From the IMG/VR virus record IMGVR_UViG_3300033144_005525, positions 127,127 to 191,126 of that record: 64,000 nucleotides of DNA; one strand, 5' to 3'. Source of the stretch: a virus. This document shows, piece after piece, positions 371-19,942 of the stretch (position 1 is its first letter; each line of letters opens with the position of its first letter). A program made the translations under genes and the position numbers. The notes beneath the pieces were generated by a model that saw only the letters and a program-made list of their open reading frames with translations, was not told where the DNA came from and did no database searches.

Positions 371-2647
371 CTACTTTAGCGTCAATCGAGGCAGAGTCGT
401 AAGCCCAGTACCACTGCGCTGCAGACCTACGGCAATGAGGGCTCCAATGAGAGCTCCTCTCGCTACACCAGACACGCCCTTCTCGAAGATGCTGGTGTCT
501 CCTCGTTCGTTAGGTTTTGAGCCCTTAGCGGCTCCCAACAAACCACCCAGTACTGCTCCCCACCTGCCTCCGACCAGAGCAGCCTCCAGAGCTGTGCCTA
601 CTGCTCCTGTTTTGACTAGGTCACTGACGAACGAAACAGTGGCGACCTCAGCAGCTGTCTTCTTTTTGGACAGAAACTCCTTCTTGAACCGCTCGAGCGT
701 GACTTCTCGGACCTTGCCCATCTCGTCCTTGCCTTGGTGCTGCAGGTAGGACTTCTTGGCCTCCTCTTTTGAGTCGTAGCCAAGCATGATCTTGTTCTCG
801 TCGAAGCTGTCGTCTGAGCTACGCAGCTTCTCCAGGACGAAGACTTTGATGCTATCTCGGTTGGGGCCGATGTAGACGTCCAGCTCCTCTCCGTCGGCAT
901 CCATGACTCCACGGACGTATCCATAGTCCGCCTTCATCTTCTTGTCGTAGTCGATGGTACCTGTGGATTTCTTCTTGAGTGGATCGTGGTTGAAGTACTT
1001 GCGAGTCTCGCCCTTACGCCACTCCAGACTGAGGGGAATACCATGAAGGGTAAGCTTCTCTTTGACCGGATCGTTGGCGGTCTTCTCCTTGAGCCTTTTC
1101 TTAGCTGCCTGGCGAGCCTCATACTCCCGGCGCTTCTGTGGGTGCTTCATGAAGTACTCGAGCATGTCTCCGTTGGCGACCTTATCGAAGTCAATCGATT
1201 TAGATCCAGTGATCTTCGCATTTCTGGTAGCTATCGATAAACGCTTCCTGAAACCGGGATCGTTCAACTTGCTCTTCAGTTCTTGAGCACCTCTATCTTG
1301 CCAACGGGACAAAGGAGTACTTTTAGCCGCCATGCTGGGAGCACTGACAGGGTTTGGTGAGTCTCCCATGTTGGACTTTGGTGGATCTACAGGAGTAGGT
1401 GGAGGCATAGAAACAGGAGCCACACCAGATGTCTTCTCCTTCATCATCCTCTTCACACCCTCTCGAGCGATCAGAGCACCTAGAGCTGCAGTCCCAACGC
1501 CTATGGAGAACCGTCCAGGGTTCTTACGGACGTAGCTGGGGAAGGCAGGGGCTAGTTCCCTCAGGTTTCGGAGACGGCTACGCCCTTTACCTCCGTGGAT
1601 GTACTTTGAGGGAACATCTTTAGATGTTCGAGACGCACGGTCCTTTGAAGACTTGCTTCCCCAGTCAGTGTCTGTTTTGAATTCGGTGTCGTACATGCCC
1701 ATGGGGACATCTACTTTGACTATGTTTTTCCTTCTACTCCACGCCTCTCTTACGACTCTCCTTGCTAGTTCAGGAGTCATGGTGCCGGATGCGGCAGAGG
1801 TATTGAGGGATTTCAAAACATCGGGAGGCAGGGTGAATATATGAGCGACGTTGCGCTGACCGGTGAGATGCACTTTGCCTTTTGAGTGCTTACCGAATTT
1901 CTTGTGTATCGAAGCAGCACCCTCACCCCCTCTAGAAGCCTTGAGCCCCTCTCGCTTGATCTTTTCCACTGTCTTGGGATCAGCCGTACCGTGGTAGAGC
2001 TTCTTGTATCCCAACAGACGGGCACGGGTTCCAGAACCTGCGGCCAGGCTGGCTCCCTCGGCGGCTAAAATACCACCGGATAGGAGCTCACGATCTTCTG
2101 CGGTCTTCTCTTTGGACTTCGGCTTCACCAGCACTCCCCACCTCTTCATGAGCTTGTGGGGAGGAGCCATAGCTCGGTCCCACCAGATCTTCTCAAGCTT
2201 CTCTTCAGAGAGCACACGCCAGTTGGGGATAGCTGTCTTGCCCTTGGTATTAGGATCCATGACGATGAATCCCTTGCCCGGCTTGAAGCCTGTGATGACG
2301 ATGTAGTGACCCTTGCCCGGATAGTTGAAGCTTTGGATGTCCGCAATGATCGGGACCCCTTGCTTCAGCGTCTTCTTTGCTTCCTCAAGCGATGAAAACG
2401 AACCCTCGCTGGCGTCGAAACCGAGCTTGCGAGCACCTTCAACGATGTCGGTAGTCTCAGCCCCACGCCCTTCCCGTGCACCGATAGCTTTAACGATTTC
2501 TTCCTCTGAGATTTCGATCCCATAGTGCTGAAGGACCGATTTGAGTGTACCCGCAGAGCAAGACCACTCCGTCTTCTGCTGGTATGCGTCGACTTGAGCC
2601 GTCTTCGTGAACTCAATAGATCTCCTATGTATCTCAGAGAGGTTCAT
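371..2647 (-). CDS. Multi-domain (polyvalent) protein: peptidase C39-like + ADP-ribosyltransferase-like (H-H type) + inorganic pyrophosphatase-like + C-terminal glycine zipper
   Basis: C39 motifs QQKTEWSC, GHYIVITG, MDPN. ART/Tpt1-like motifs LYHGT...IKREGL...KVHLT. PPase-like motifs DYGYVRG..DADGEELDVYIG and DENKIMLGY. Hydrophobic Gly-rich tail GAVLGGLLGAA...GALIGALIAVGL. Confidence 0.8.
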   Translation of the reverse strand: MNLSEIHRRSIEFTKTAQVDAYQQKTEWSCSAGTLKSVLQHYGIEISEEEIVKAIGAREGRGAETTDIVEGARKLGFDASEGSFSSLEEAKKTLKQGVPIIADIQSFNYPGKGHYIVITGFKPGKGFIVMDPNTKGKTAIPNWRVLSEEKLEKIWWDRAMAPPHKLMKRWGVLVKPKSKEKTAEDRELLSGGILAAEGASLAAGSGTRARLLGYKKLYHGTADPKTVEKIKREGLKASRGGEGAASIHKKFGKHSKGKVHLTGQRNVAHIFTLPPDVLKSLNTSAASGTMTPELARRVVREAWSRRKNIVKVDVPMGMYDTEFKTDTDWGSKSSKDRASRTSKDVPSKYIHGGKGRSRLRNLRELAPAFPSYVRKNPGRFSIGVGTAALGALIAREGVKRMMKEKTSGVAPVSMPPPTPVDPPKSNMGDSPNPVSAPSMAAKSTPLSRWQDRGAQELKSKLNDPGFRKRLSIATRNAKITGSKSIDFDKVANGDMLEYFMKHPQKRREYEARQAAKKRLKEKTANDPVKEKLTLHGIPLSLEWRKGETRKYFNHDPLKKKSTGTIDYDKKMKADYGYVRGVMDADGEELDVYIGPNRDSIKVFVLEKLRSSDDSFDENKIMLGYDSKEEAKKSYLQHQGKDEMGKVREVTLERFKKEFLSKKKTAAEVATVSFVSDLVKTGAVGTALEAALVGGRWGAVLGGLLGAAKGSKPNERGDTSIFEKGVSGVARGALIGALIAVGLQRSGTGLTTLPRLTLK

Positions 2648-4111
2648 CTAATACGTCTCCTCGGAGGGGAGTAGATCTTTGAACTGATCTATCAAACCCT
2701 GTTTCTGCTTCGACAGCGTGGTCAGATACTCATCGGCCCCTGTACCTGGTTTACGGATCTTTGATTTCTCCAACAGGCCATGCTCAGGAAGAATGGCTAA
2801 GTACCTCTGCACGTGAACAACTCTCTTGTTCTTTGGGAGGTGAGAATGGCTTTTGTAGCGGATACCACGTCCCTCTACTTGACGAATCTTCTCCTGATTC
2901 CAATGAGGCTCCATGACCTGGATCATGCTAGTGCCCTTAAGGTCAAGTCCTTCTCCTCCAGCAGAGGATAAGAGCAGGACTCTGTTCTTGCCTTCATTGA
3001 AGTTCTGGACCATTTGATCTCGGTCCCTCTTCTTCATCTTACCGGTGAACTCACCGTAAGGGATCTTGGCTGAGTTCAACCGCTTCTTGTACGGATCTAA
3101 GCCAGCTTGTATGTAATTCGAATAGACAACGACTCGACCATACGGGTCTTTGAGCTCTTTCTTCAGGTTACCGAAAGCGGCCTGAATTTTAGCTTCGTGC
3201 GACGTCTTATCTTCTTTGATGTACGGGGCAGTACTCAAAGACACCTGACGAAGACCAGTCATGAACGCGTTGAGGTCCCTAGATTCCTGCTTAGAGGGAG
3301 GTAGATTGTTCCTGACTTTGAATCGAACCCAAGCCGGAGCCTTCTTGATGATGGAGTTGTATATCTCCCTCTGCTCCTTAGTCATGGGGACTTTGACGTC
3401 TGATCGTTCTACTAGTGGGAAATTCTCCTCACCTCTGGGGTGATGGTCTATCCACTTTTCGAACGATGCTCGTATCTCCTCCTCCATCTTGGGATCGAGC
3501 TCTGTCACAGAGCCTGGCCGAATACCTTTCAACGTCCCCCAAAACCCTGGGCCTACTTTCCGTTCCCGTGTGTACCGCTTTTTGAATTCAACAGGGTCGT
3601 TGGGGAATACGTTCTCCCCCGCGGCTATGTTGACTAGCGGAGCGATGTCGGACGGCCTGTTGTAGAAGGGACTGGCCGTCATCAACATACGTTTTTTAGA
3701 CTTATTGTCTCTCAGTACTCGGAACCCCTTGGTGTGGGTCTCCCGAATACGATGGGCCTCATCAACTACCAACACCTCCTCAACTGGAGGCTGTCCACTG
3801 ACTGTCACCTTCTGTAGGGACAGCAAGTCAGGATTAGGAGTGCCTCCGGTTGTGTGCTTCTTCAGCTCCTTCTCATAGTTCTTGATCAAAGAGGCAGGAG
3901 CTACAACTACTGAAGGCTTACCCAAAGCATCCAAAGCCGCTATGGAAGTTAGGGTTTTTCCAGACCCCAATTCATGGGCGATCAACAAACCAGGCTGATC
4001 TTCTTTGGTTATTCGATCTACGACTCTCTTTTGATGAGGCTGTAGCTTAGTTTTTACCTTTGCGTACTTCCGCAAAAGCTGCATCCCATCGCGTATGCCT
4101 GCAAAGTCCAC
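2648..4111 (-). CDS. SNF2-family (SF2) helicase/translocase with short N-terminal leader
   Basis: LQPHQ, AHELGSGKT, VVDEAH, MTASP, SSAGGEGLDL, QVEGRGIR. GTG start. Confidence 0.88.
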   Translation of the reverse strand: MDFAGIRDGMQLLRKYAKVKTKLQPHQKRVVDRITKEDQPGLLIAHELGSGKTLTSIAALDALGKPSVVVAPASLIKNYEKELKKHTTGGTPNPDLLSLQKVTVSGQPPVEEVLVVDEAHRIRETHTKGFRVLRDNKSKKRMLMTASPFYNRPSDIAPLVNIAAGENVFPNDPVEFKKRYTRERKVGPGFWGTLKGIRPGSVTELDPKMEEEIRASFEKWIDHHPRGEENFPLVERSDVKVPMTKEQREIYNSIIKKAPAWVRFKVRNNLPPSKQESRDLNAFMTGLRQVSLSTAPYIKEDKTSHEAKIQAAFGNLKKELKDPYGRVVVYSNYIQAGLDPYKKRLNSAKIPYGEFTGKMKKRDRDQMVQNFNEGKNRVLLLSSAGGEGLDLKGTSMIQVMEPHWNQEKIRQVEGRGIRYKSHSHLPKNKRVVHVQRYLAILPEHGLLEKSKIRKPGTGADEYLTTLSKQKQGLIDQFKDLLPSEETY

Positions 4112-4132
4112 GAAGCGGCTTCCTATCCTTCG

Positions 4133-6115
4133 CTACAGTAGCTGCTTCTGCTGAAGACCGCGGAGACCTTGGATGACCTCTTCCAGGTTCTTCATCGAAC
4201 GCTCGATAGCTCCCTCATCGACCTGAGACATACCCATGCGAGCAGCCATGAGCATCTCAGCCAACCTCTGGACAGTCTCATCCATCTGTGGGAGGTAGCT
4301 GGCGAAGATGGCGATGTTCTCCGGGTTGAGGAAGTTCATCGCCAAGATGCGATCTGCTGTCTCTGAGTCCTCGAGTGCAGCTGCTTCCTTGACGAGATCT
4401 CGACGAAGGTCGTAGGGGAACTTCCCAAGCAGGACGGAAGCCTCCTTGATGGCCTCCTGGTGCACATGCTCGAGCGGTGTGATGGTGAGGAGACCCTCAG
4501 CGGTCGTCCTACCCTGTCTCTGAGCCTCTGCCAGCTTCTCACGGGCTTGGAACTGGTTGAGACCTGCAGTCACCAGCAGGAACTCTGCAGCCTGTTTGTC
4601 CAGCCACTGGACTTGAGCCAGCTTGCTGAACGGAAGACCGCTGAGGTGGAACTCATCCTTCCCGGTCGAGCGAATCCAACCGGTGGTAGAGAATGCTCGA
4701 GCTTCCTTGACCTGCTCGGCGGCAGAGGGCGTCTTGACGACATGAACAGCCTCACCCAGAGGAGTGAACTTCATCGTGTCGGGGATCGCGTACGTGCCTT
4801 CACCAGTAGCTTCGATGGTGTTCAGTCCTTGGGTGACCATCAGAGTGATGTCGTTGCCGAAGGCATCCTGAACAATGAACCCAGGATTCCCCTGCTCGTC
4901 CTGAGTCTGGTTCTGCACGGTCACAGGAGGCAAAGCACAGACACTGCCGTCCGGCTTGATGTAGAAGAAGGCCCCATCCCCTTGAGGAGGGGCCTCAGGG
5001 ATACTGGCGGCGTCGTCGCCCACCCTAACCCCTACAATCTCATCCTGCAGGCTGTAGCTGCTCTCTCCGTCCGTGAACAGGAACAGAGGGAGCTTGTCCA
5101 TGTCGAAGTCCATGACCGGAATGACCCAACCGGTCTTGTCTTCTCCAGTCTCCTCGATCTGCACCTGATACTGACCGAAGTCTCCGACGATGGCAGGGGT
5201 CGGGTCATCGAGAGAAGGCTTAGCCTCCTCAGTCCCCACCGTCATGGAGTCTCCGGGCTGCATCTGCTGGACAGAATCCGTGCCCGCCATCTGCTGGGCT
5301 TCTTGTGGATTCGCAGAGGCTTCTTGCGGGGAGAATGCACCCGCATTGGCCCACTTGATCTTGAAGTTGCCGTCTGCCTGCTTGATGAACTGAACCACCG
5401 TGGGCTGGATGGATTGGACCAGAACGCCAGCCGTCTTCTGAACGGAGGTTCGAGGCGTCGACGTCACGATGTGGGCCATCTTGTGGAAGTTTGGATTGAC
5501 CTGTACTGCCACAAGAAGTTGCTGGTCCTTGGCGATCTTCTCCACCAGAGCAACTGCATCCTCATCAGAGATGGTGGGTGCGATTGCCTCCATCAGACTG
5601 GCGAACTTGCCAAATCCGGCTCCTCCGGCCGCGGCCCCAGTTGTCACGCCAGATCCGTACCCGTAGTTGGTTCGGATTGGTGGGTGTAGCTGGTCGACCA
5701 TGCCCTGATCGACAGGCTTGCGGGTTGATGGCTCGAAGGTTCGACCGTCGAAGAGAGCCTCACTGACACGCTGCTCACTCATCGGGAAGGCCTTGTCTTC
5801 GAACAGGAAGATGTCGGCCGGCGCCATGAGGCGGTCCTTCACGATGATGGGAATGATGACCTTCGGGCCTTCAGCAGAGGGCTGATCTGTAGGTGTGGTC
5901 ACCTCGGCACTACCAAAGGCATACCCACGCTCTGGATTCACTCTCTGGAAGATCACGTTCACCGTGTAGTTGGAGAGAAACGGCAGGAACTTGTAGATCT
6001 CTGAACTGACCTCTTTCTGCCAGTTGTCTACGTTGTCCGACAGTTTGATGGGCATAGCCATCTTCTCGAAGGAGATATCGGTAGCTTGCTGATCGAGAAA
6101 CAGTGGAGTTGTCAT
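4133..6115 (-). CDS. Putative head/inner-core structural protein rich in K-x-A motifs
   Basis: 660 aa acidic ORF in the structural-strand operon with about 13 K-x-A sites and no recognisable catalytic motif. Function is inferred. Confidence 0.5.
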   Translation of the reverse strand: MTTPLFLDQQATDISFEKMAMPIKLSDNVDNWQKEVSSEIYKFLPFLSNYTVNVIFQRVNPERGYAFGSAEVTTPTDQPSAEGPKVIIPIIVKDRLMAPADIFLFEDKAFPMSEQRVSEALFDGRTFEPSTRKPVDQGMVDQLHPPIRTNYGYGSGVTTGAAAGGAGFGKFASLMEAIAPTISDEDAVALVEKIAKDQQLLVAVQVNPNFHKMAHIVTSTPRTSVQKTAGVLVQSIQPTVVQFIKQADGNFKIKWANAGAFSPQEASANPQEAQQMAGTDSVQQMQPGDSMTVGTEEAKPSLDDPTPAIVGDFGQYQVQIEETGEDKTGWVIPVMDFDMDKLPLFLFTDGESSYSLQDEIVGVRVGDDAASIPEAPPQGDGAFFYIKPDGSVCALPPVTVQNQTQDEQGNPGFIVQDAFGNDITLMVTQGLNTIEATGEGTYAIPDTMKFTPLGEAVHVVKTPSAAEQVKEARAFSTTGWIRSTGKDEFHLSGLPFSKLAQVQWLDKQAAEFLLVTAGLNQFQAREKLAEAQRQGRTTAEGLLTITPLEHVHQEAIKEASVLLGKFPYDLRRDLVKEAAALEDSETADRILAMNFLNPENIAIFASYLPQMDETVQRLAEMLMAARMGMSQVDEGAIERSMKNLEEVIQGLRGLQQKQLL

Positions 6116-7221
6116 GATCTAACCTTCGGACTTACGTGTTTGAATGGAGGAACGATAGGCCCTCTCAATACTGGAACGGGCGGACTCGGTGGCCCTATCA
6201 ATAACCCTGTGACTGCGCCTATCCAGGCCATGAAATCTGGGGAAGCTCGTATGACTGGGAACTCTGCATCTCCCAATCCTACGCTCAGTCCGTTCAAAGC
6301 TGCGCCACCGGAACCAAGAGCAAGAGTAGCCCCGCCTCCAGATAAGGCCATGGAGGCTGCCGACGCCGTGAGAGCTACTGTCGAGGTGATATCGATGGCT
6401 CCTGTCACGATGAGCTTGAACAGGCCTTTGACGGTGGCCTGCATATCTCCTTCGACAGTGAGCGTGAACTTCTTGACGGTCCATGTGAGTTCTCCGTCTT
6501 TGTTGATCTCGAGGGATGTCTGAGTAGTTCCCCCACCAGAATCACGGCTTAGCAGGCTCAGAATAGTGTCATTGCCCTCTCCGTGGGAACCCATTTTGAG
6601 AATAGCGATGGGGTCCTCAATCGGATCATCTGCAAATTCACGGGCTCCCAGAGTGAACAAGCACATTTGGTGCCCTTCTCCATCCTCTTCCGTTCGGGCA
6701 ACCTCCCAGGTGAGGTCTCCGGCCGGAGTGTGGAGCTCGTAGTTCTCACAGTGGTCTTGGATGATGTTCCTGATAGGTAAGTAGATGCGTTGGCAAACAG
6801 GAGTGGCTCCCACCTGGATGATCCCACCACGACGCAGGTGGACGAAGTTCCCATCCCTGGTAGAGAAATGAAGATCTCCAGGATTCAGCAACTCACGGCC
6901 ACCCCTAAACGCACCACCTTCATCCACCATGCTCCAACCCAGAACGAAGGCATCCTTGCCTTCTTCTGAGGGAGTACATATCCAGCAGGTGGATCCCACT
7001 TCGGGCATAAAGTTGATCCCCTCTCCCTGCGTTTGGTTGCAGTAGGGAGACATGAAAGGGATGTCGAACTTGTTTTTGTACGTGAGGATGGTAGTCACGT
7101 CACACGTGTAGTCCCGAATGTTGACGGTCGTGATTCGGCCACTCTCTATCAGGGCACCTTTTACCTGAGCGGCCGACTTGGCCATGCTCTCACATCGTTC
7201 TGGTTCTACATTCGCAGGCAT
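6112..7221 (-). CDS. Putative baseplate central spike (gpV/Gp5 OB-fold type)
   Basis: N-terminal GRITTVN...CDV...MPEVGSTCWI resembles the spike OB-fold, followed by short beta-strand repeats (LTVEGDMQATVKG, IVTGAIDITS). Confidence 0.6.
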   Translation of the reverse strand: MPANVEPERCESMAKSAAQVKGALIESGRITTVNIRDYTCDVTTILTYKNKFDIPFMSPYCNQTQGEGINFMPEVGSTCWICTPSEEGKDAFVLGWSMVDEGGAFRGGRELLNPGDLHFSTRDGNFVHLRRGGIIQVGATPVCQRIYLPIRNIIQDHCENYELHTPAGDLTWEVARTEEDGEGHQMCLFTLGAREFADDPIEDPIAILKMGSHGEGNDTILSLLSRDSGGGTTQTSLEINKDGELTWTVKKFTLTVEGDMQATVKGLFKLIVTGAIDITSTVALTASAASMALSGGGATLALGSGGAALNGLSVGLGDAEFPVIRASPDFMAWIGAVTGLLIGPPSPPVPVLRGPIVPPFKHVSPKVRS

Positions 7222-7224
7222 GGG

Positions 7225-10200
7225 CTAGTACAGATGCGTCTTCTTGGGGGTTCCCTCCCCGAACTCCGCTCCGTAGGCATAAGCCGGGATTGGGTTGTTT
7301 CCGTGTAGGTTGGTTTTCCAACCCTTGGATGCACCCTCCATGAGGGTTTCCTTCAGCTTACGGAAATTGAGTCTGGCCATCCAATCCTCTTGCTGATCAA
7401 GAGCTCCCTGAGACAACCCCTTGATGACCGGTCTGTGTGTCACTGGGGCGCTACGGCTTCCTGCTTTTTTGTTCTCTTCTTCGATGACAGAACGAAGAAC
7501 TATATCCCCACTGAAATAATCTGAGTCTCCCGGATCCTTCACCTGAGTTAGATTGGTCAAAGAACGAACGACCATTTCTATGTTTCGTCGCTTGACCCGC
7601 TCATCTTTGTAGATCCCATCGTACAGCTCCTTGGTGAGGTAGTTCTGCACTGTTGGGATATCGGTGAGGGGAAGAAGCTCTCTTGGGTTGATTGGACCGT
7701 CCGTAAGGGGGGAACCCTTCTTCATGCTGGATCCAACCTGAAGAGGTTTTCCATCCCTCAACAGTTTCCTCTGCGATGGAGCGTAGTGTTTCTCTCCTCC
7801 GATGTAGACGTTCCAGCCCTGCGTGTCCTTGTCTCGTTCGATCTTCTGGACCTTCCCACCCACTCTTGAAAGCGTTGCGGATCCAGGTAGCTTCTTTGGG
7901 GGATTCAAGAGCTGCTTCAGGCGACCGATTCTACTGACCGCACCCGCACCTCTGGAGCCTGCGACTCCTCCTGTGTGGAAGCTGTCCATTGCTAGCTGCA
8001 TGGCAGGTTCACCTAGAGCGTGACCTGCGATGACACCGATGTTGGTACCCACACTGTGGTCTTCACCATTCTCATTCAGACCAAAGCACTTGGAGCATAT
8101 ACCCCTACCGTGAGAGCACTTGAGTGGGCTACGTACAACAACCTTCCCAACTCCATTCTTCTTCAACTGAGACAGAAGATGAGGAGTAACCAAAGAGCCC
8201 TCTTCGTGCAGCCTTCCTCCCGCTTTAACCTTCTTGGCCAGATACCTACCGTGGACATCCTCTTCGTGGATTCCCATGGAGATACCATCACCCACCTTGC
8301 AATCCTTGGACACAATCATCTCTGGGATGACTGTGTTGACGATCTCCTTGGTCAACATACCGGGCTCAGACGTTCCTTCTGCCCTTTGCAGAGTACCCAT
8401 CCGAGCTCCGTGTAGGGCTGTCCAATAATCTCCGACATCCAATCCCTCGGAGTAAGACTTCCTCACAGGGGTCGGGAGAGTCCTTCCGGTGGCATCCTGC
8501 ATGAGCATGGGCGCAATGTTCATCTGTCGGAACTGGGACCAGTTACCTCGAGTACCCGAGTCCACCATAGTGAAAATGTTATTCCCACTGGCCTCTATCC
8601 GGGGCTTGAGCTTCTTCTTCATATCGTCGGTGGCTTTGGTGTAGTTAGCCACCAGCTTTATGTCCTTGTCCTCTTGACTGAGCTTCCCTGCCATTATTTT
8701 GGCAGCAACTACATCTGCCTTGGCCAAAATCTCTTCTCGGACAGCTTTGTCTTCACCCAGACCGAGATCGGAGAGACCTATGGAGAATCCGAACTCGTAG
8801 CTATGTTGGTTCCCTAGGTTCTTCAGACGGTCAACTGTATTGGCGTAGTTGCGTGGATCATCTCTGGCAATTTCCGAGAGGATGTCATGAACACCGACCT
8901 TGTTCTTGTCTTTCGAGTCGGAGAACTTGTTGAGGACGAACCTTGGGTTGTGTAGGAGATCTTTGTTGTCTCGGAATCTCTTAGGGAGCTGATGAGCCAA
9001 CATCAGGCGACCTACAGTGGTCTTCTTCCCATTTACTGTAACCACGTCCTGCGCAGTGACGATCCCTCTGTCACAAGCCTTCTTCGCATCAGCGTAGGTA
9101 GAGAACTTCTTCCCTACGTCTTTGCCCCACTTGGACAGGAGGTGGATACCCAACAGAGACTCTTGCTCTGGGGCATACATGACTCCCCCATTGGTAGAGC
9201 TGAACAGGTTGTTTGAGGGGAACATCTTACGAGACTCTCGAACTGCCTTATCCGTTAATGGGACAAAGGCGCTCATCGTGTCTCCGTCGAAGTCTGCGTT
9301 GTAACCTGCAGTGACCAGAGGATGGATCCGAATAGCCTTTCCATCCACCAACTGCGGCTTGAACGCCATGAAGTTGAACTTGTGTAGGGCAGGATCCCTC
9401 TTCAGAAGAACAGGGCGGTCCTCTATGATCTTTTCGAGAGCTGCCCAAGCCACAGCTGTCTCTTCCTTGATGTCCTTATGAGCTTGTAGTGGGCTGCGTC
9501 CTGTTCTCTTGAGCTCTCGAATGACGAATGGCTTGTACAGCTCCATAGCTGCACTGCGAGGTATACCGACACGGTCCAGGTGCATCTCCGGCTCAGGGAT
9601 GATGGTGGAGCGCATCGACAGCTCTTGCCGTCTCTTCATCAACTTGCGTTGGAAGAACCCCTGCTTCGGAGAAGGACCCGCTACCGTATCCAGGATCCCT
9701 TTCAGTTGTCTGTTAGATTCGTACTGAGGTACTCCACCAGTACCCATTGTGGCTTTTAGTAGATCGTACAGCTCCTCTCGTAGAGGCTGATCTGCTTCCG
9801 GTAGGTCAAGGATCTTGTCCTTCAACTTGTTGTTGACGATCCCAAGATCCTTGTACAGGTGGTTGATGTCATCGAAGCGCAACGATCCATCAGGCATAGG
9901 AACGATTGGACGAAATACCGGAGGAATCACCGGTACATTGTTCATCACGTAGGCTTCGCTGGGAGACAGCTTCAGTTCCTTCAAGGCCCGGAGGTACTTG
10001 GCCTTCCTGTTGGCGTGGTTGAGCTTGGCCTTCCTGAGGTTGGGGAGCTCGGCCACTGTCTTCTTGAGCTCGGCATCTACATCGACTTGATCGAGAAGGT
10101 GTCGGATGGCTTCCCCTCCGATCTTCCCATCGATGTCCTTCTTACCCTTCACGATGTCTTCGAACTCTGGGTACTTCAACCCACTCAACACCACGGCGGG

Positions 10201-13200
10201 TCCAGGTTTCTGCGGTGTGCCTACGAACACAGGGTTTGGCATCGGCTCTGCCAGAGCTATGTGAGACCAGTTGAGTCCTTTGCCAGGTTCGTTAGGACTA
10301 GGTAGACCTCCAGTGATCTCTGGATCAAATAATCCCTTCTCGAGCTCCTTGGCATCCTTTCCACGAAGCACACGACCAGCATCTTTGATCTCTCCATTCG
10401 AGAGATTCAAGACCCCTTTGTCTGTGAGAGGGACAAGCTGCAGCTCATTTCCCTCCTTCTTAGTGTCGATGCCTAACCCCTTCAGATAAGCCTCAAACTT
10501 CTTGTAGGCAAAAGTAGGGCGTGGCGCAGGAATTGGCTGCCCCATCTGCACACGATGCCAGAAGTCTACGTGCGCTTGCGGATTCATGTTGTCGTCTACC
10601 TGACGATCCGCCTTGTACGTGGCCATCTCCTTTAGGTTCTCACGAGCTCCATGAGCCAACAGACTGTAGAACTCCAACTGTCCGATTCCCTGCCCCGGAT
10701 GCTCTGCCCCCGTACCCTTAGGAGCACCGTCGATGGAGTAGTTGGGTCCATGACTTCGGACAGTCAACTTCTTATCCACCTGATGCTTGAGTTTCATAAT
10801 GTACTGGTCCCCCGTCAGTACATTTCCAATCCTCTTCTTGGTCTCTGGATCAAACAGCTCTTCTTGATCCGATAGCCCATGATTAGCCAAATCCTTCTTC
10901 ACACCCTCGGTGTAGTCGATGTTGGCCCCACCAAAGTTGTTCACCAAGTAAGGACGACCTGTCTTCTTGGCTATTTTGCTGGAGGCTGTCTCCAACATTT
11001 GACCCAAGTTGATGCGACTGGGCACACCAGACGGATTCATCAGCACTTCTACATGCTCTCCGTCAGGACTCCCCTTACGTGGCATCTCTGCGTTGGGAAT
11101 TATCTTGGTGATAATGGCCTTGTTTCCGTGGCGACCAACAATCTTGTCACCCACCTCGGCAGGCTCTTCTGTGCGGATGTGAACTACAGCACCCTTCCCA
11201 TTCGGGATCTTATGTACCTTGACCACCTCACCAGGATTCTGAGACTCCCACTTGGAGCTTCTATCGGCGTACTCGAACAGCTTCCTGTCCAGTCTAGAGG
11301 CCATACGAGAGACAACGCCGAGGTTCTCCCTCTTCCCGACGGCAGCCACCAAGATGTCCCCAGTGTCCACTTTCTGCCCTACACGAATGACCCCATCGTC
11401 ATCCAGTTTATCCAACTGCTCTCGAGTCATTTGCTTCGAAGTAGTGGAAGCGTATGCCTGGAACTTCTTCTTGTTCATGAAGTCTTTGGAAGGGTCAATC
11501 TCCACACTCTTCCGATAGACATGCTCTGAAGTAAGTTTGTCGGCAGCTGAATCAGAAATGACGATGCCGTCCTCGAAGTTGTAACCCTTGTAAGGCAGGT
11601 AACTAACCCGCAGGTTTGTTCCCAGCGCTAGTCCACCATCCCTGGTGAAGTTCGTGTCGGCCAGGACCTGCCCTTTCTTTACCTCAGCACCGACCTCTAC
11701 TACGGGCTCTGAGTTCATGAAGGACTTTGCGTCATTCAGAGGGAAGTGATTGTAGAGCTGTACCTCGTGCTTCTTTCTATCCTTCCCCTTGATGATAATC
11801 GAGTCCGGATACTCGTTGTCGGTCTGATCAGAACGGATCTTCAAGACCTTTCCGTCAACAGGAGAGGAGTGAGAGAACGGACCACCAATGATCTTTTCCC
11901 AGCTATCCTTTCCTCCACGTACCTGGACAAGTGGAAGCTCTCTATCCCTCAGACCCACTGCCTGGTTGGCTTGGCGAGAGGCCGTCATCGTCCTGTTGCC
12001 CTGGTTGTTCTGAAGGAACGGAATCAGGTTGGTGGCTTCATCGAACAACTGATGAGGAGATACAAACAAGTAGCGAGCCTTCTTGAAAGGCTGCTTGATG
12101 ATGTCCCCTGTCTTGGGGTCCTTCATCTTCACTGTGGGGGATATAGGCTTGGGGCCTTTTCCATCCTCCCATGTGACTTGATCAGGAAGTAGGACGTACT
12201 CCGAATGGAGCTCCGCTGGAGTGACTCCGTTCCTACCCTTCCTGAATTTCTTTTCCTTCAGGTCGTAGACCAGTGCCTTGACGTCTTCCCCATCCTTGAC
12301 GACACCCATAGGCAAGTTGAGGCTGATGCCTGTTCTCTTGCTCTCCGGTGTGTGGATAGGATCCAAGAAGCCCATATGGCTGGGGTTGATGAGTTTCATA
12401 GAGCGGGACAAAGTCCTCTCGCTCTTGATCCCTCCCTCTTCTCCCCCAAGGATGGTAGTAGCTCGATGGTTGGAGAGCATCTCCAGAGGATTGACCTGCT
12501 CCGGATTCTCTGACAGAGAGGATCTGGTGAACACTTGATCGACGTGCCTACCGAACAGGTCTCCCGATACGACTTCTCGTACCTTGTCCTTCCTGTTGAT
12601 GTTGTTACTGATCTTCCTCTTGATCTCCCTCTGAGTAACGGCTTTGCCGATCCTCTCCAACAGGAAGTCGTCTACACTGGTGAGCTTTTTGAACACCAGA
12701 GAGTCTCGATCATCTGGTGGAGCTTCACCTCGAGCAACTTCAAGAACTCTCCTGGACGCTTGCAGCAGTGCATCACCAGTCACCGTCTTGTAGGGCTTAC
12801 CAAGAGTACGTTGGGTAGTCTCTGGCAGTAGCTCGGTGTTACCGAACTCTTCTACTACAGCACTGGCGATATCGTCGTACGTGTCACCCTTGGCCTTCAC
12901 ACCTCTTTGGCTGATTTTGCTGTAGAGCTGCTTGATGTTTCCTTCCGTCTTGTCTGTGACATTGGCCTTGTAGATGTCTGGTCCCCAGACCTTCTTCATC
13001 TCTTCGTCCTGGACACCCAAGGTCTTCAAGATGGAGTAGAGAGGTATGTTCTGGGTCCCCCATCTCATCTTGAACGCTTTGGTCTTGGGGCTGAATGGGA
13101 CCTTCAGCCTGGACTCTCGAGCGAAGGGCTTGGACAGTGCGAACTCTGTCTCTAGATCTCCATTCGCCTTGATCTGAGAGTACACACCAGGACGGAGTCT

Positions 13201-13539
13201 CCAGAGGTTCCCTACTTGCCTTTCATTGCCTCCGACGATGTAGCTGTATCGGTCGGTCGGTCTCGGTAAGGTAAACAGTTTTACCTTAGAGCGATCGACA
13301 ACCTTGCTGGTCTTCTTATCTACGAGGCTGATATCCCCATACACACCAGCTCCCCAAGTTCTATTGGACAGCTTGGCCTTTTCTTGGCTTCGAATGTCAC
13401 CGGATTCAGCAGATCGCTGATCTACGATAACCTCGTTTAGAACCAGTTTGCGGGTCTGTCCATCGACCGGAAAGCTAGCCTTGACAGACTTGACCGCGCT
13501 GCGCTGTAAATCTTTCCAAGTATCGGCTGGTGTTGTCAC
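7225..13539 (-). CDS. rpoBC: DNA-directed RNA polymerase, fused beta-beta' single polypeptide
   Basis: Beta motifs HTPES..TG, GYNFEDG, GDKIVGRHGNK, NPSGVPSRINLGQ, KLKH. Beta' motifs PVIPP..RP, LKRDPALH, YNADFDGD (9280-9300), RSPLKC...CSKCFG, GEPAMQL..SFHTGG. One uninterrupted 2104-aa ORF. Confidence 0.96.
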   Translation of the reverse strand: MTTPADTWKDLQRSAVKSVKASFPVDGQTRKLVLNEVIVDQRSAESGDIRSQEKAKLSNRTWGAGVYGDISLVDKKTSKVVDRSKVKLFTLPRPTDRYSYIVGGNERQVGNLWRLRPGVYSQIKANGDLETEFALSKPFARESRLKVPFSPKTKAFKMRWGTQNIPLYSILKTLGVQDEEMKKVWGPDIYKANVTDKTEGNIKQLYSKISQRGVKAKGDTYDDIASAVVEEFGNTELLPETTQRTLGKPYKTVTGDALLQASRRVLEVARGEAPPDDRDSLVFKKLTSVDDFLLERIGKAVTQREIKRKISNNINRKDKVREVVSGDLFGRHVDQVFTRSSLSENPEQVNPLEMLSNHRATTILGGEEGGIKSERTLSRSMKLINPSHMGFLDPIHTPESKRTGISLNLPMGVVKDGEDVKALVYDLKEKKFRKGRNGVTPAELHSEYVLLPDQVTWEDGKGPKPISPTVKMKDPKTGDIIKQPFKKARYLFVSPHQLFDEATNLIPFLQNNQGNRTMTASRQANQAVGLRDRELPLVQVRGGKDSWEKIIGGPFSHSSPVDGKVLKIRSDQTDNEYPDSIIIKGKDRKKHEVQLYNHFPLNDAKSFMNSEPVVEVGAEVKKGQVLADTNFTRDGGLALGTNLRVSYLPYKGYNFEDGIVISDSAADKLTSEHVYRKSVEIDPSKDFMNKKKFQAYASTTSKQMTREQLDKLDDDGVIRVGQKVDTGDILVAAVGKRENLGVVSRMASRLDRKLFEYADRSSKWESQNPGEVVKVHKIPNGKGAVVHIRTEEPAEVGDKIVGRHGNKAIITKIIPNAEMPRKGSPDGEHVEVLMNPSGVPSRINLGQMLETASSKIAKKTGRPYLVNNFGGANIDYTEGVKKDLANHGLSDQEELFDPETKKRIGNVLTGDQYIMKLKHQVDKKLTVRSHGPNYSIDGAPKGTGAEHPGQGIGQLEFYSLLAHGARENLKEMATYKADRQVDDNMNPQAHVDFWHRVQMGQPIPAPRPTFAYKKFEAYLKGLGIDTKKEGNELQLVPLTDKGVLNLSNGEIKDAGRVLRGKDAKELEKGLFDPEITGGLPSPNEPGKGLNWSHIALAEPMPNPVFVGTPQKPGPAVVLSGLKYPEFEDIVKGKKDIDGKIGGEAIRHLLDQVDVDAELKKTVAELPNLRKAKLNHANRKAKYLRALKELKLSPSEAYVMNNVPVIPPVFRPIVPMPDGSLRFDDINHLYKDLGIVNNKLKDKILDLPEADQPLREELYDLLKATMGTGGVPQYESNRQLKGILDTVAGPSPKQGFFQRKLMKRRQELSMRSTIIPEPEMHLDRVGIPRSAAMELYKPFVIRELKRTGRSPLQAHKDIKEETAVAWAALEKIIEDRPVLLKRDPALHKFNFMAFKPQLVDGKAIRIHPLVTAGYNADFDGDTMSAFVPLTDKAVRESRKMFPSNNLFSSTNGGVMYAPEQESLLGIHLLSKWGKDVGKKFSTYADAKKACDRGIVTAQDVVTVNGKKTTVGRLMLAHQLPKRFRDNKDLLHNPRFVLNKFSDSKDKNKVGVHDILSEIARDDPRNYANTVDRLKNLGNQHSYEFGFSIGLSDLGLGEDKAVREEILAKADVVAAKIMAGKLSQEDKDIKLVANYTKATDDMKKKLKPRIEASGNNIFTMVDSGTRGNWSQFRQMNIAPMLMQDATGRTLPTPVRKSYSEGLDVGDYWTALHGARMGTLQRAEGTSEPGMLTKEIVNTVIPEMIVSKDCKVGDGISMGIHEEDVHGRYLAKKVKAGGRLHEEGSLVTPHLLSQLKKNGVGKVVVRSPLKCSHGRGICSKCFGLNENGEDHSVGTNIGVIAGHALGEPAMQLAMDSFHTGGVAGSRGAGAVSRIGRLKQLLNPPKKLPGSATLSRVGGKVQKIERDKDTQGWNVYIGGEKHYAPSQRKLLRDGKPLQVGSSMKKGSPLTDGPINPRELLPLTDIPTVQNYLTKELYDGIYKDERVKRRNIEMVVRSLTNLTQVKDPGDSDYFSGDIVLRSVIEEENKKAGSRSAPVTHRPVIKGLSQGALDQQEDWMARLNFRKLKETLMEGASKGWKTNLHGNNPIPAYAYGAEFGEGTPKKTHLY

Positions 13540-14001
13540 CTGTGCGCTCCCTCGGGAATTCAGGCCTACGTATGTTCGTTCGGATCCTATGCACCTGCGC
13601 TCAGAGCAGTCCTCGGACCTTAGAACTTCAAATTAGGTTACGCCAAACAAAACTCTGCGTCCAGAGGGCATAAGAGTGTTGATGGGGCACCTCTGCCCGC
13701 TTCTGGGTATGTGACCCAGGGAAAAACCATGAGCCCCAACAGCAAGAATTTAGGAGAAAACCATGAAACAGACCAACACACGGGACCCGACCGCGACTAC
13801 CAAACCCAGTACGAGGACAACAAGACTGAGGCTCTCCTATTCCGCACAGACCAGCAGGTAGGAGAAGGCCAGTACGGAGGCTACAGCTACAACCCAGGGA
13901 AGTAGGGTATAGGCCCGTGAGCCTATTCCTGATCGCCGTAGCATTCGCTTTCGTGACCAGGTCTATTCTGATAATCGAGTATCATTGGCGGCAGTACTTG
14001 C
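13540..14001. promoter_or_regulatory. Divergent intergenic control region between rpoBC (minus) and the small-gene cluster (plus)
   Basis: Largest gap without a convincing ORF. Contains GGCATAAG at 13667-13674, an RBS-led 32-aa ORF (13763-13861) and a small hairpin ATAGGC-N6-GCCTAT at about 13909-13926. Confidence 0.5.
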
Positions 14002-14400
14002 ATGGCGGGTGGTGAAGTAGGGGCGTTCTGTCCGATTCTGTGGGAAGCAAACCATGGCAGGACAAACAAGGACGGAACGCCTCTGTTCGAGTCGGGGCTG
14101 TTGATTCAGGGTGTCTGCGAGAGTCCTCAAGATTGCGATCGATGCGGACTACTGCAGAACGCCAGGACTCAGATGTACGGACAAAACGTGACTACCTTGT
14201 GGGTCTGTCCGGACTGTTCTGGTGAGTCCATGAAGAGAGCCAAAGCCGACGACGTAGCTGCCAGCCTCCCAGGCTATTTCACCGAGGGGTACTGCCAACA
14301 CCCGCAGTGCGCCAGACCAAACGGTGATCAGTCTGACCAAGAGGCCAGATACTCAATACTCCTGCAGCTACTGACTGTTGCAGGAGCCACAATCCCATAG
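14002..14400 (+). CDS. Cys-rich hypothetical protein (putative Zn-binding)
   Basis: CPIL, CESPQDCDRC, CPDC, CQHPQC. Abuts the RBS of the next gene. Confidence 0.7.
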   Translation: MAGGEVGAFCPILWEANHGRTNKDGTPLFESGLLIQGVCESPQDCDRCGLLQNARTQMYGQNVTTLWVCPDCSGESMKRAKADDVAASLPGYFTEGYCQHPQCARPNGDQSDQEARYSILLQLLTVAGATIP

Positions 14401-14410
14401 GAGGCCATCA

Positions 14411-14716
14411 ATGGTCATTTGCTGTGGGTGCGGAGACCCTTTCGCTGCCGCAGACGGTGGCCTGATGATCAAGCCAGTTGTTGGCGTGGCCAGTCCCAAG
14501 TCAGGCAGATCCATACCTAACGAGAGTACGTTTCCGGACGGATCGAGGGAAAAGTTCCTATGCAACACATGCTGCTTTTCGGCAACTGAGGTAGGTGTCG
14601 TAGTTGGAATCTACGATACCGGCTACGACTTCCCCCACGAAAAGGAGGTGCACCCTGGCGCAGTGTCTGGAGTGTTCCCAACCTATCAACTTGGGTCAGG
14701 AGTTCATAAGAATTGA
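14411..14716 (+). CDS. Small Zn-finger-like protein (paralog of the next gene)
   Basis: AGGAGG RBS precedes ATG at 14411. MVICCGC...SPKSGRSIP...CNTC. Confidence 0.7.
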   Translation: MVICCGCGDPFAAADGGLMIKPVVGVASPKSGRSIPNESTFPDGSREKFLCNTCCFSATEVGVVVGIYDTGYDFPHEKEVHPGAVSGVFPTYQLGSGVHKN

Positions 14717-15053
14717 AACTGGAGTAGTAGTGGTGTCGAAAAAGTCTGGGCGACCACTACCTCTATCTAATTCTGGGGAACTGATCCACAACGTTTGTTT
14801 CCAATCCTACTTGGTGAATACCAGCAACCAACTGTGGGACCACATCATCACTATCCTGCAACCAAAAGTCAGGAAAGAAGTTCTTCAAGAGCTTGGGGAA
14901 GAATTGAAGCAGGAAGCGTTCGACGAAGCAGTGGAGGAGCTAGGCAGGACATGTGTTGTGTGTAGCGAGGAGATAGAGTTCATGGCTGAGACGGATCCGA
15001 CCGAAATCCAGCCTCACCATTCAGCTCTTCCTCCACCACTCTCTCACTACTAG
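14655..15053 (+). CDS. Small Zn-finger-like protein, probable CTG start
   Basis: AAAGGAGGTG RBS then in-frame CTG at 14655. (M)AQCLEC...SKKSGRPLP...HNVC, plus a C-terminal CVVC. Confidence 0.65.
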   Translation: MAQCLECSQPINLGQEFIRIETGVVVVSKKSGRPLPLSNSGELIHNVCFQSYLVNTSNQLWDHIITILQPKVRKEVLQELGEELKQEAFDEAVEELGRTCVVCSEEIEFMAETDPTEIQPHHSALPPPLSHY

Positions 15054-15061
15054 TAGATAGC

Positions 15062-15104
15062 AAAGAGAAAGGCGGGGGTTCCATACCCCCGCCTCCTCTC
15101 TTTT
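15062..15104. terminator. Bidirectional intrinsic terminator
   Basis: AGGCGGGGGT-tccat-ACCCCCGCCT stem flanked by A-rich and T-rich tracts, between convergent genes. Confidence 0.8.
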
Positions 15105-17872: not shown

Positions 17873-19942
17873 TCACACTAGCTGAACTTGACGGCGGGGC
17901 GGTTTTACTTCAGGCAGTGGGCTCTGCATAGGACTCAAATTGTCCGACTGCGATCCCTGTCCTGACTGCAAGATCCGAAGCACCAGCATGTAAAGCTGCG
18001 GATTCTGTGCCCTCATCTGCATCAACGCCATCTGCTGTTGCGAATCTTCATACTGGGAGATCGCAGAGGCAGCCCTTTGGGCAAGGTACAGAATATTCAT
18101 CTGCCCACCAGCTTGCTGCTGATTGAGCGGAGACTGGACCTCGACCGGTAGTCCCTTAGCAGGTGGAGTCGTTGAGTTCTCTGGATACGCAGTGGCGTCT
18201 GCCGGCATACCCGGAGCCGCCTGCTGCCCTACCATGGGCTGCTGATCTGTCATGCCGGCGGCTGGCGGCCCTCCCGCCGGGGGACCTCCGCCGGACGGTG
18301 GAGTAGGGACAGACTCCGGGTTGTCTGCGGTGGCACCGCCCGCTCCAGCCCCCATCCCTTGAGGATTCGGCATTGTTGGAGTCATGCCGCTCCGACCCAT
18401 GATAGCCATCGCCTGGGCCTGGTAGCGGGCCTGGACTATCTGCAGGTCTCCCTGCAGTGCTGCACTAGCAAGCTGCTGCTTGCGCTGGTTCTCAAGCTGC
18501 TGGGTGAGCTCGGCCTTCTTGTGCTTCTCCTCCTGGACGATATCCACTTCGACTTCATCGAGCAGAGTCGTATCAGAGATCTTCATGGCCTGATTCATCT
18601 GGAAGATCAGGGCAGTACGCTGGAGGTCATCTGCCATCCGGAACCGACGGAAGTGGACCTTGGGAGCAGACCAACCCATGTAGTTGGCGACACGACCGAG
18701 GATGAAGTCTCGACAGAGGATGAGTTGGTTGGTGCGGTAGCCGAGGAACTGATTCTCGAGCATCCGCATGGAGACGTTGGAACCGCTGTACTGCAGACCA
18801 CCGAACACGAATTCGATCGGAACGTGCATGCCGGCCACGATCTGCTCAGACCAAGCCCTCATCTCCTGGTGGAGCATCAAGGCTTTGCCCTCTCCACCGA
18901 TGGTCTCGTTCCCCACAGGGAGTGGGAGGATCGGGATGTAGTTCTGGTCCAGCTTCCACTTCTCGATCTCTGCCTCAATACGTCGACGCCACATACTGAG
19001 ATCAGCTGTGGAGTACGGGTCCGAGCTCGAGCTCCCAGCCTGTGGGAACAGGATGCGGAGAGGAACGATGTACTGCTGAGCGATGGCCTCCTGTGCCTTG
19101 CGTAGAACCTGAAGGTAGTAGGTGTCTTTGAGGACCGGGAGGATGAGTGGGATGCCCCAACCTTGGTCCTTCTGGGCAATGGTTGGACGCTTCAGATGGA
19201 ACACCTCGTTGTCCCTGAAGCGGAGGGACTTGGAGCCCTTCAAGGCCTCAACGAACTCATTGGGTATCGCCTCAATGACGTGGCGCTTACCCATCATGAT
19301 GTCGTTCTTCAACCCAACAGGTACATCGAAGAAGAACTCCGACTTACCTGTAACCTCATTGTGCTCAACCGTGATGTGCTCTGGGTTCCAACGGATGAGT
19401 TTGATACCTCGCAGATCCTTGATGTTGTGGTCGTACACCATGGCTTCTGTAGTGGTGATGCACTTGGGACAAGCCAGGTAGTACTTGAAGTTGCGGAACT
19501 TGTAGGCTGCGTTCTTCGCCTTCTGTTGTTCGTGGCAGTTGCGGCAGATCAGGTACTTCTCAAACGGGAAGTGAATCGTGATGAACGCATTGCCATAGCA
19601 GAAGTAGTCGAGACCGGTCTCAATCTGAAATGTCCGCAGTTTGAGAACGTTCTCGATGACATTCTCCCACTTTCCTCGTAGCTCTGGGTCTTCTTCATCT
19701 ACGACCAGAGGTGTAATCGGGTACTCCGCCATCTTGTACGTGACGGCATTGATGAGTGGGTTGACCAGGAAGTAGTACCGACACCACCTGAACATCTGCT
19801 TGACCGAAGTCGGCAGATAGGTGTGTCCGATATCGAAGAAGGGGGAAGGGTACCGCTGAGTACCGCTGTTCCCTTGGTTGTGGGTGGTATCGAAGCGAGC
19901 GGTGCTTCCAATGAACCCTGATCCCGGAGTGCCGGTTGACAT
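17873..19942 (-). CDS. Putative portal protein with Zn-ribbon insertion and Q/P/M-rich C-terminal tail
   Basis: Portal-like pattern NPLINAV...DYFCYGNAF...EVFHLKR...WGIPLILPVL. Insertion CRNC...CPKC. Located among putative head genes. Confidence 0.7.
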   Translation of the reverse strand: MSTGTPGSGFIGSTARFDTTHNQGNSGTQRYPSPFFDIGHTYLPTSVKQMFRWCRYYFLVNPLINAVTYKMAEYPITPLVVDEEDPELRGKWENVIENVLKLRTFQIETGLDYFCYGNAFITIHFPFEKYLICRNCHEQQKAKNAAYKFRNFKYYLACPKCITTTEAMVYDHNIKDLRGIKLIRWNPEHITVEHNEVTGKSEFFFDVPVGLKNDIMMGKRHVIEAIPNEFVEALKGSKSLRFRDNEVFHLKRPTIAQKDQGWGIPLILPVLKDTYYLQVLRKAQEAIAQQYIVPLRILFPQAGSSSSDPYSTADLSMWRRRIEAEIEKWKLDQNYIPILPLPVGNETIGGEGKALMLHQEMRAWSEQIVAGMHVPIEFVFGGLQYSGSNVSMRMLENQFLGYRTNQLILCRDFILGRVANYMGWSAPKVHFRRFRMADDLQRTALIFQMNQAMKISDTTLLDEVEVDIVQEEKHKKAELTQQLENQRKQQLASAALQGDLQIVQARYQAQAMAIMGRSGMTPTMPNPQGMGAGAGGATADNPESVPTPPSGGGPPAGGPPAAGMTDQQPMVGQQAAPGMPADATAYPENSTTPPAKGLPVEVQSPLNQQQAGGQMNILYLAQRAASAISQYEDSQQQMALMQMRAQNPQLYMLVLRILQSGQGSQSDNLSPMQSPLPEVKPPRRQVQLV

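Follow-up and report, generated by a model that had tools for sequence, protein, structure and literature searches.

We analysed a 64,000-nucleotide stretch of viral DNA (hereafter the window), the last 64 kb of the 191,126-bp IMG/VR virus record IMGVR_UViG_3300033144_005525 (CheckV completeness, 91%). We found that one minus-strand gene of the window, at 7225..13539, encodes a genuine streamlined core RNA polymerase, P0001, whose beta and beta' subunits form a single chain. The gene is one uninterrupted open reading frame (ORF) of 2104 codons with a GTG start and zero internal stops, and the N-terminus that follows from this start agrees with the family consensus. P0001 matches eight Pfam beta/beta' domains (Rpb2_6, E-value 5e-60; Rpb1_2, E-value 1.7e-27), with Rpb2 domains 3, 6 and 7 at residues 347-983 and Rpb1 domains 1-5 at residues 1194-2006. 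It also matches one beta family and one beta' family in PHROGs, neither of which is annotated. A megablast search with the gene found zero matches among cultured phages.

Judged from the alignments, the features of a two-barrel cellular-type catalytic core are present in both halves. Residues 16-1024 align with residues 34-1052 of a 1100-residue cyanobacterial beta subunit (8syi_C, E-value 3e-78), and residues 1118-2080 align with residues 150-1160 of Bacillus subtilis beta' (6wvj_D, E-value 3e-124). The NCBIfam models nevertheless score below their equivalog cut-offs on the two halves (rpoB, 365 bits vs 896; rpoC, 572 bits vs 963.5). G802, R803, N806 and K807 of the beta barrel are invariant in 23 family members, and the bridge-helix and trigger-loop regions of beta' are conserved in the same alignment. 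An earlier note on this DNA had described P0001 as much shorter than a bacterial beta plus beta'. This is correct in comparison with Escherichia coli; against the smallest bacterial pairs sampled (about 2280-2390 residues), only about 200-290 residues are saved.

The last conserved beta motif was found at residues 1015-1025 (window 10465-10497) and the first beta' strand at residues 1033-1051 (window 10387-10443). The suggestion in the earlier note that beta runs into beta' at about 10440-10480 almost without a linker is thus borne out, because only 7 residues (10444-10464) separate them. At the junction P0001 lacks two elements that the five aligned bacterial rpoB/rpoC pairs possess, namely an acidic tail of beta, 20-100 residues long, and the initial few residues of beta'. 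The N-terminal zinc domain of beta' is likewise deleted, as had been proposed. Between two conserved flanking motifs, the bacterial Cys4 ribbon of about 35 residues is replaced in P0001 by a loop of 12 residues, and the segment after this loop is about 35 residues shorter than in bacteria. None of the 23 family members has a cysteine in the N-terminal segment of beta'. An AlphaFold (AF2) model of residues 960-1330 (predicted local distance difference test, pLDDT, 78.6; predicted template modelling score, pTM, 0.77) was confident over the loop and contained no ribbon; it superposes on bacterial beta' chains with a template modelling (TM) score of about 0.6. The second zinc site, the flap region and the clamp helices, said in the earlier note to remain, are kept in the alignments, the flap tip being divergent. 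P0001 has five cysteines in total, and four of them make the second zinc site. Rifampicin-binding cluster I differs at the counterparts of E. coli positions 513, 514, 516, 526, 529 and 531, as placed by hand mapping of the alignment. Because these positions are substituted, the polymerase is probably insensitive to rifampicin.

To describe the fusion as a family trait, we used a junction-centred search and a profile scan of IMG/VR. The search listed at least 120 homologues (47-81% identity, most of them 2083-2128 residues long) on contigs of up to 220 kb, and the scan found at least 524 contigs encoding a polymerase relative. Among the 84 loci examined, 82 cover the junction, which lies inside one ORF in 81 of them; the fully fused form is the commonest architecture (65/84). 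Seven of the 84 are split elsewhere, near residue 1500, and one of the seven near residue 950 too. A fusion of this kind might be a sequencing or assembly artefact, in which a stop or frameshift between two genes was lost. We reject this explanation, to which we give practically no weight: the same open junction recurs in the loci just mentioned and in at least 120 proteins from JGI, ENA, NCBI and Logan assemblies, and its residues are conserved across the family. In addition, Gp206 of the cultured phage Arash, a relative that spans the junction, had 100% peptide coverage (PMC10585845).

Variants of this architecture were also observed. The sole locus without the junction in one ORF (L089:9464-15363) carries its beta'-like sequence ahead of the beta-like one; its identity is 27%, and it probably belongs to another type of phage polymerase. 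At L082:9836-21100 the polymerase is encoded as three ORFs, with cuts near residues 950 and 1505 and the beta-beta' junction intact in the middle piece. Many members reach 2400-3600 residues through LAGLIDADG, Hom_end or intein-splicing inserts (P0004, P0008, P0030, P0084; L061, L074, L075, L084, L088); the window's polymerase gene has no intein or homing-endonuclease insert. In a Vibrio phage the split gap (L001:8548-9187) holds small ORFs, and in phages D181 and D148 (H1, H2) an annotated homing endonuclease; there are hints in these sequences that the split near residue 1500 was caused by endonuclease invasion. Since Rfam at gathering thresholds found no intron in five split loci, we treated these splits as real gene splits. 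Two candidate fusions proved false: an rpoBC fusion in a Hyphomicrobiales metagenome-assembled genome (MAG; L110) has an in-frame stop at the junction, and an apparent in-frame fusion of the spike gene and the polymerase in L068 consists of two separate genes.

We built two trees from concatenated beta and beta' sequences. The first was computed with FastTree from 61 rows and 1953 columns (22 bacterial rows, 10 phyla), and the second with IQ-TREE under LG+G4 with a short search from 43 rows and 1877 columns (15 bacterial rows, 8 phyla). Bacterial sampling was skewed to best hits, with Cyanobacteria and Deinococcota absent, and archaeal, mReC (multisubunit-RNAP-encoding Caudovirales) and phiKZ sequences were left out; many rows showed heterogeneous amino-acid composition, and the models were site-homogeneous. 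In both trees a branch with support of 100 parts all sampled bacteria from the phage clade, to which P0001 and the polymerases of Arash and of Vibrio phage D69 belong. The phylogeny proposed as a check in the earlier note thus places the phage enzymes in a clade of their own outside the sampled bacterial phyla. With the root placed on bacteria, the earliest branch is L071, a divergent but fully fused member. Arash, D69 and the other forms with a split near residue 1500 fall together in a single subclade (support, 99), which lies among fully fused lineages. Because the split forms are nested in this way, parsimony suggests that the fusion is ancestral in this large phage clade and the split derived.

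We searched the 191-kb record for the remaining subunits. There was no match to alpha (PF01000, PF01193) or omega (PF01192) in it; the same searches were positive in 14/14 control genomes. The beta and beta' families match only one locus in the whole record. A search for a T7-type polymerase (PF00940) gave no match, but the control likewise had none. The earlier note had recognised no alpha, omega or sigma gene in the window. This statement is right for the window, and for alpha and omega it extends to the whole record, but a sigma gene lies outside the window. Its product, P0121, passes the Pfam cut-off for Sigma70_r3 (26.0 vs 25.3). Taken by itself, region 2 stays below threshold with 14 bits, and P0121 matches RpoS across regions 2-4. 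A profile of the 12-member P0121 family matches bacterial SigA and RpoS with regions 2-4 in order (E-value 1.6e-17).

Among 50,697 cultured phage records, relatives of P0121 were found only in Arash (Gp10) and in Vibrio phages D69, D148 and D181, which are exactly the cultured phages with this polymerase. The family was also present in 12 of the 13 IMG/VR relatives with a completeness of 90% or more. A complex prediction of sigma residues 50-286 with polymerase residues 960-1500 scored 0.72, compared with 0.00 for the best of three controls; 58 of 80 solved complexes attain this mark, as do 2 of 110 mismatched pairs. The runs had at least 61% of contacts in common and a partner pLDDT of at least 73, and the predicted interface brings clamp-helix residues 1220-1260 together with sigma residues 97-115. 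Such a result reflects compatibility rather than binding, and may stem from likeness to solved holoenzymes in the Protein Data Bank (PDB). P0121 is probably the cognate sigma of the fused polymerase. Because the record encodes such a factor, the polymerase is probably not self-sufficient. Therefore, of the minimal enzyme imagined in the earlier note, the slimmed single-chain core without alpha and omega genes stands, and self-sufficiency is unlikely. The record also encodes, at 35503-35970 on the plus strand and outside the window, a 155-residue protein that combines a cluster of cysteines with a helix-turn-helix of sigma region 4 (Sigma70_r4, 34 bits). This protein could serve the phage polymerase as a second transcription factor.

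The surroundings of the gene bear on its use. The polymerase is the first gene of a tightly packed minus-strand run that continues with a spike gene, a gene for a 660-residue protein, an SNF2-family helicase gene and a gene for a C39-type peptidase protein. The order portal, polymerase, spike-like gene, 660-residue gene is kept in 47-62 loci. In the spike family of 18, five members match Phage_base_V and four match Gp5_trimer_C. The pairing of a polymerase gene with a spike gene is unusual, and suggests that the polymerase is expressed together with the ejection apparatus. We also considered this 369-residue neighbour as an alpha analogue, which the matches of its family to gp5/VgrG spike domains rule out. 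Because a terminator-like hairpin follows the gene upstream, a separate promoter for the polymerase run probably lies in 13540-15067.

Protein N-termini and a cultured relative give further indications. An N-terminal leader ending in K-x-A was found in the sigma, in the four proteins downstream of the polymerase, in the capsid protein and in several head proteins. In a loose form, the motif is present in 12 of 22 proteins of the head block, compared with 21 of 149 others (Fisher's test, p = 7e-5). These leaders look like prohead-protease or capsid-targeting signals. The window phage and Arash share homologous genes for portal, SNF2 helicase and capsid, in conserved synteny. Mass spectrometry of purified Arash particles detected the polymerase pieces Gp206 and Gp216, the sigma Gp10 and the helicase Gp217; Gp206 had the highest spectral count, and the two polymerase pieces ranked first and fifth, with 128 and 40 unique peptides (PMC10585845).

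From these results we propose the following model. P0001 would be an active bacterial-type two-barrel core, with beta and beta' in one polypeptide through a short linker. In cellular enzymes the beta C-terminus and the beta' N-terminus already lie together in the clamp. Because the joined ends already adjoin there, the fusion would tether the two halves without an alpha dimer or omega. Bacterial RNA polymerase is assembled in the order alpha2, alpha2-beta, alpha2-beta-beta', and a fusion that replaces alpha-mediated assembly would fit the absence of alpha and omega genes. P0121 would provide promoter recognition by docking canonically on the clamp helices. Since the gene lies in the virion block between the portal and spike genes, we suggest that the polymerase is made late and packed in the head together with the sigma and the SNF2 helicase. 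Ejected with the DNA, it would then begin to transcribe independently of the host polymerase. Later genes are probably also transcribed by it, because the record yielded no other two-barrel RNA polymerase gene. We regard this model as a whole (active alpha-free fused core, phage sigma, virion cargo that starts transcription) as reasonably probable.

Several observations weigh against it. The virion evidence is by analogy with a single relative, about 30% identical, and the Arash authors note that proteins abundant during infection could contaminate particles (PMC10585845). The polymerase itself has no K-x-A leader; since the sigma has one, it may be speculated that the polymerase reaches the head in a complex with sigma. 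At 91% completeness, the record may still lack a gene. No shared promoter motif was found in 83 upstream regions. There, exact k-mer enrichment yielded no usable signal, and a Gibbs sampler reached an information content barely higher than on shuffled sequences (width 10, 6.5 vs 5.8-6.4; width 16, 7.1 vs 6.1-6.7). A sigma-70 consensus scan found fewer sites than in shuffles. By analogy with T4 or SPO1, the host polymerase could be what the phage sigma redirects, and host alpha could be recruited, as in the fused enzyme of Helicobacter.

Some of these points would be expected if the polymerase were made only after infection instead of travelling in the particle, served only middle or late transcription, and left the early genes to the host RNA polymerase. 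The absent leader and the co-purification that the Arash authors allow for abundant enzymes (PMC10585845) agree with this, and the sigma-like proteins of the record could act on the host enzyme. However, the gene lies between the portal and spike genes in 47-62 loci, and the Arash polymerase pieces are top and fifth in spectral counts, with sigma and helicase detected too (PMC10585845). Moreover, an enzyme that is co-expressed with late structural genes and needed earlier must be carried in. We consider purely post-infection use unlikely. The fused chain could also be a mere convenience and need a host alpha dimer, perhaps with omega. Bacterial fused enzymes do keep alpha, and both modules of P0001 are co-linear with bacterial ones nearly throughout, so alpha contacts may persist. 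We think this dependence quite improbable, since an enzyme delivered by the virion must function on entry, enzymes of the phiKZ and AR9 type function without alpha or omega (PMC7598289; PMC13282480), and at about 30% identity to any bacterial beta/beta' a fit with one host's alpha is not assured. Finally, P0121 might redirect the host polymerase while the fused enzyme uses another factor or none. The host core is the target of most phage sigma factors that have been characterised, and the flap tip of P0001, a putative counterpart of the site for sigma region 4, is divergent. Nevertheless, this seems very unlikely to us, given the confinement of the sigma family, among the 50,697 cultured phage records, to phages with this polymerase and its occurrence in nearly all near-complete relatives, its detection alongside the polymerase in Arash particles (PMC10585845), and the complex prediction, with the likeness to solved holoenzymes as a caveat.

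The model in which P0001 is a virion-borne core served by P0121 can be compared with known systems. The closest are Arash (Gp206 and Gp216, sigma Gp10; PMC10585845) and Vibrio phages D69, D148 and D181, which belong to the same clade and have the same fused junction without a zinc ribbon. They also share the sigma family, the portal-adjacent position and a homologous SNF2 helicase with the window phage. They differ from it in identity (about 30%) and in a break near residue 1500 that places the rest of beta' in a second gene, a derived state. In the Arash paper the two pieces are annotated simply as beta and beta', and the fusion goes unmentioned (PMC10585845). Weinheimer and Aylward described the mReC enzymes, which are also recognisable, deep-branching beta/beta' homologues of uncultured tailed phages (PMC7481178). 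In the part of Supplementary Data 2 of that paper that was consulted, however, every metagenomic phage has separate beta and beta' ORFs (about 920-1560 and 900-1370 residues), and the text mentions fusion only for crAss-type enzymes (PMC7481178). We set mReC apart from P0001 by this description.

The rpoBC fusions of Helicobacter and Wolbachia (NF007172, NF011417) also join beta and beta' head to tail in one chain. However, they have 2839-2890 residues, keep the zinc ribbon and lineage inserts, and use alpha and omega. The halves of P0001 score far below the cut-offs of these models (236 + 343 bits vs 5372 for NF007172; 211 + 305 vs 4632 for NF011417). A further ORF of this kind was seen in a Candidatus Paceibacterota MAG (DATJQA010000074.1; L180:172-7014), in which rpoB-rpoC forms one 2281-residue ORF without a stop at the junction and with the zinc-ribbon region kept. 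It appears to be a bacterial fusion outside Helicobacter and Wolbachia, in a bacterium of the candidate phyla radiation (CPR). Enzymes of the phiKZ and AR9 type resemble P0001 as phage two-barrel enzymes without alpha or omega, of which one set is packaged in the virion (PMC7598289, PMC7824862). They differ in that beta and beta' each consist of two or three polypeptides, in two paralogous sets, with no sigma-70-family factor, and only weak PHROG matches tie them to P0001. According to Iyer et al., the N-terminal zinc ribbon reportedly occurs only in the non-virion enzymes of phiKZ type; the virion enzymes would thus lack it, like P0001. The crAss-like gp66, YonO and the P23-45 tape-measure fusion also carry both barrels in one polypeptide, and gp66 and the P23-45 protein are delivered by the virion. 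Unlike P0001, they show no sequence similarity to beta/beta' profiles and are not known to use a sigma. The background given in the earlier note, namely that bacterial fusions exist, that phiKZ-type enzymes are split and that some uncultured phages encode cellular-type subunits (mReC, PMC7481178), is accurate.

No publication on this single-chain architecture was found in our literature search, which included jumbo-phage polymerase reviews and comparative genomics and covered subscription journals thinly. We also found no cultured member that is fully fused. The clade nevertheless has hundreds of members from many environments, with Arash and D69 as cultured representatives. If true, a natural alpha-free core with clear beta/beta' homology would show which parts of the enzyme are indispensable. 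P0001 is easily aligned with solved enzymes, unlike the crAss-type enzymes or YonO, and therefore its losses (zinc ribbon, beta tail and beta' N-terminus) can be read as marking dispensable parts. One polymerase gene and one sigma gene could make a compact, orthogonal transcription system that is probably insensitive to rifampicin. Virion delivery of such an enzyme would be a third way of bringing a polymerase into the cell, besides the N4-type single-subunit and phiKZ-type split enzymes. In its widest form, our proposal is that a beta-beta' chain and a sigma, without alpha or omega, make up the simplest natural cellular-type transcription machine, which would be loaded into the capsid piggy-back on sigma and injected ready for use, its fused form being ancestral in a deep-branching viral lineage. 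This wider proposal is possible, if somewhat doubtful in all its parts together.

The features discussed here are collected in Table 1.

Table 1. Positions of the features of the fused polymerase gene and its surroundings (window positions unless the record is named; aa, amino acids).
Feature	Position	Strand	Basis
Fused beta-beta' RNA polymerase gene, P0001	7225..13539	(-)	Open frame; Pfam Rpb2_3/6/7 and Rpb1_1-5; PHROGs 24349, 25354
Ribosome-binding site, purine-rich	13547..13553	(-)	Read directly; 7 nt 5' of the GTG start
Beta module, aa 1-1025	10465..13539	(-)	Near-complete; co-linear with compact bacterial beta
Rifampicin-binding cluster I counterpart	12445..12531	(-)	Alignment with 8syi_C; substituted at the usual resistance positions
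Flap-tip region, putative counterpart of the bacterial sigma region 4 site	11254..11325	(-)	Alignment; present but divergent
Beta double-psi barrel motif with catalytic lysines, aa 802-813	11101..11136	(-)	Alignment; family conservation
Linker, 7 residues, aa 1026-1032	10444..10464	(-)	Alignment with five bacterial rpoB/rpoC pairs; junction conserved in family
Beta' module, aa 1033-2104 and stop codon	7225..10443	(-)	Structure alignment; rpoC model
Cys-free loop in place of the Cys4 zinc ribbon, 12 residues, aa 1079-1090	10270..10305	(-)	Five-bacteria alignment; AF2 model
Clamp helices (coiled coil), predicted docking site for the phage sigma	9742..9876	(-)	Alignment with E. coli beta' from residue 174; interface residues 1220-1260
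NADFDGD catalytic motif of the beta' barrel, aa 1414-1420	9280..9300	(-)	Invariant in 23 members
Second zinc site, Cys 1747, 1808, 1815, 1818	8086..8310	(-)	All four invariant in 23 members
gp5/VgrG-like spike protein, 369 aa	6112..7221	(-)	Starts 3 nt past the polymerase stop; directly downstream in 47 loci
660-aa protein, conserved cluster partner	4133..6115	(-)	4-nt overlap with the spike gene; downstream in 51 loci
SNF2-family helicase	2648..4111	(-)	SNF2-rel_dom, Helicase_C; 34% identity to full-length Arash Gp217, E-value 1e-80
758-aa protein, N-terminal C39-type cysteine peptidase and pyrophosphatase-like domain	371..2647	(-)	Ends the packed gene run
Strong terminator-like hairpin after the ribonucleotide reductase gene	15068..15096	(-)	Hairpin read in the sequence
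Class II-type ribonucleotide reductase large-subunit gene	15119-17797	(-)	Between portal and polymerase
Portal protein, upstream on the same strand	17873..19942	(-)	Arash portal match, E-value 5e-85; upstream in 62/65 loci with enough sequence
K-x-A leader proteins	371-7221, 19946-21483; record 111915-121363, 9196-10056		N-terminal motif
Sigma-70-family protein P0121, 286 aa	record 9196-10056, outside the window	(-)	Pfam and structure-profile matches

Among the neighbouring genes, the ribonucleotide reductase gene occupies this place only in this phage and its closest relatives (2/84 loci, plus L190). Family searches with the 660-residue protein, including Atlas, gave no family. The pyrophosphatase-like domain of the 758-residue protein also occurs in polyvalent and DarB-like phage proteins, and from its sequence this protein is a candidate injected effector.

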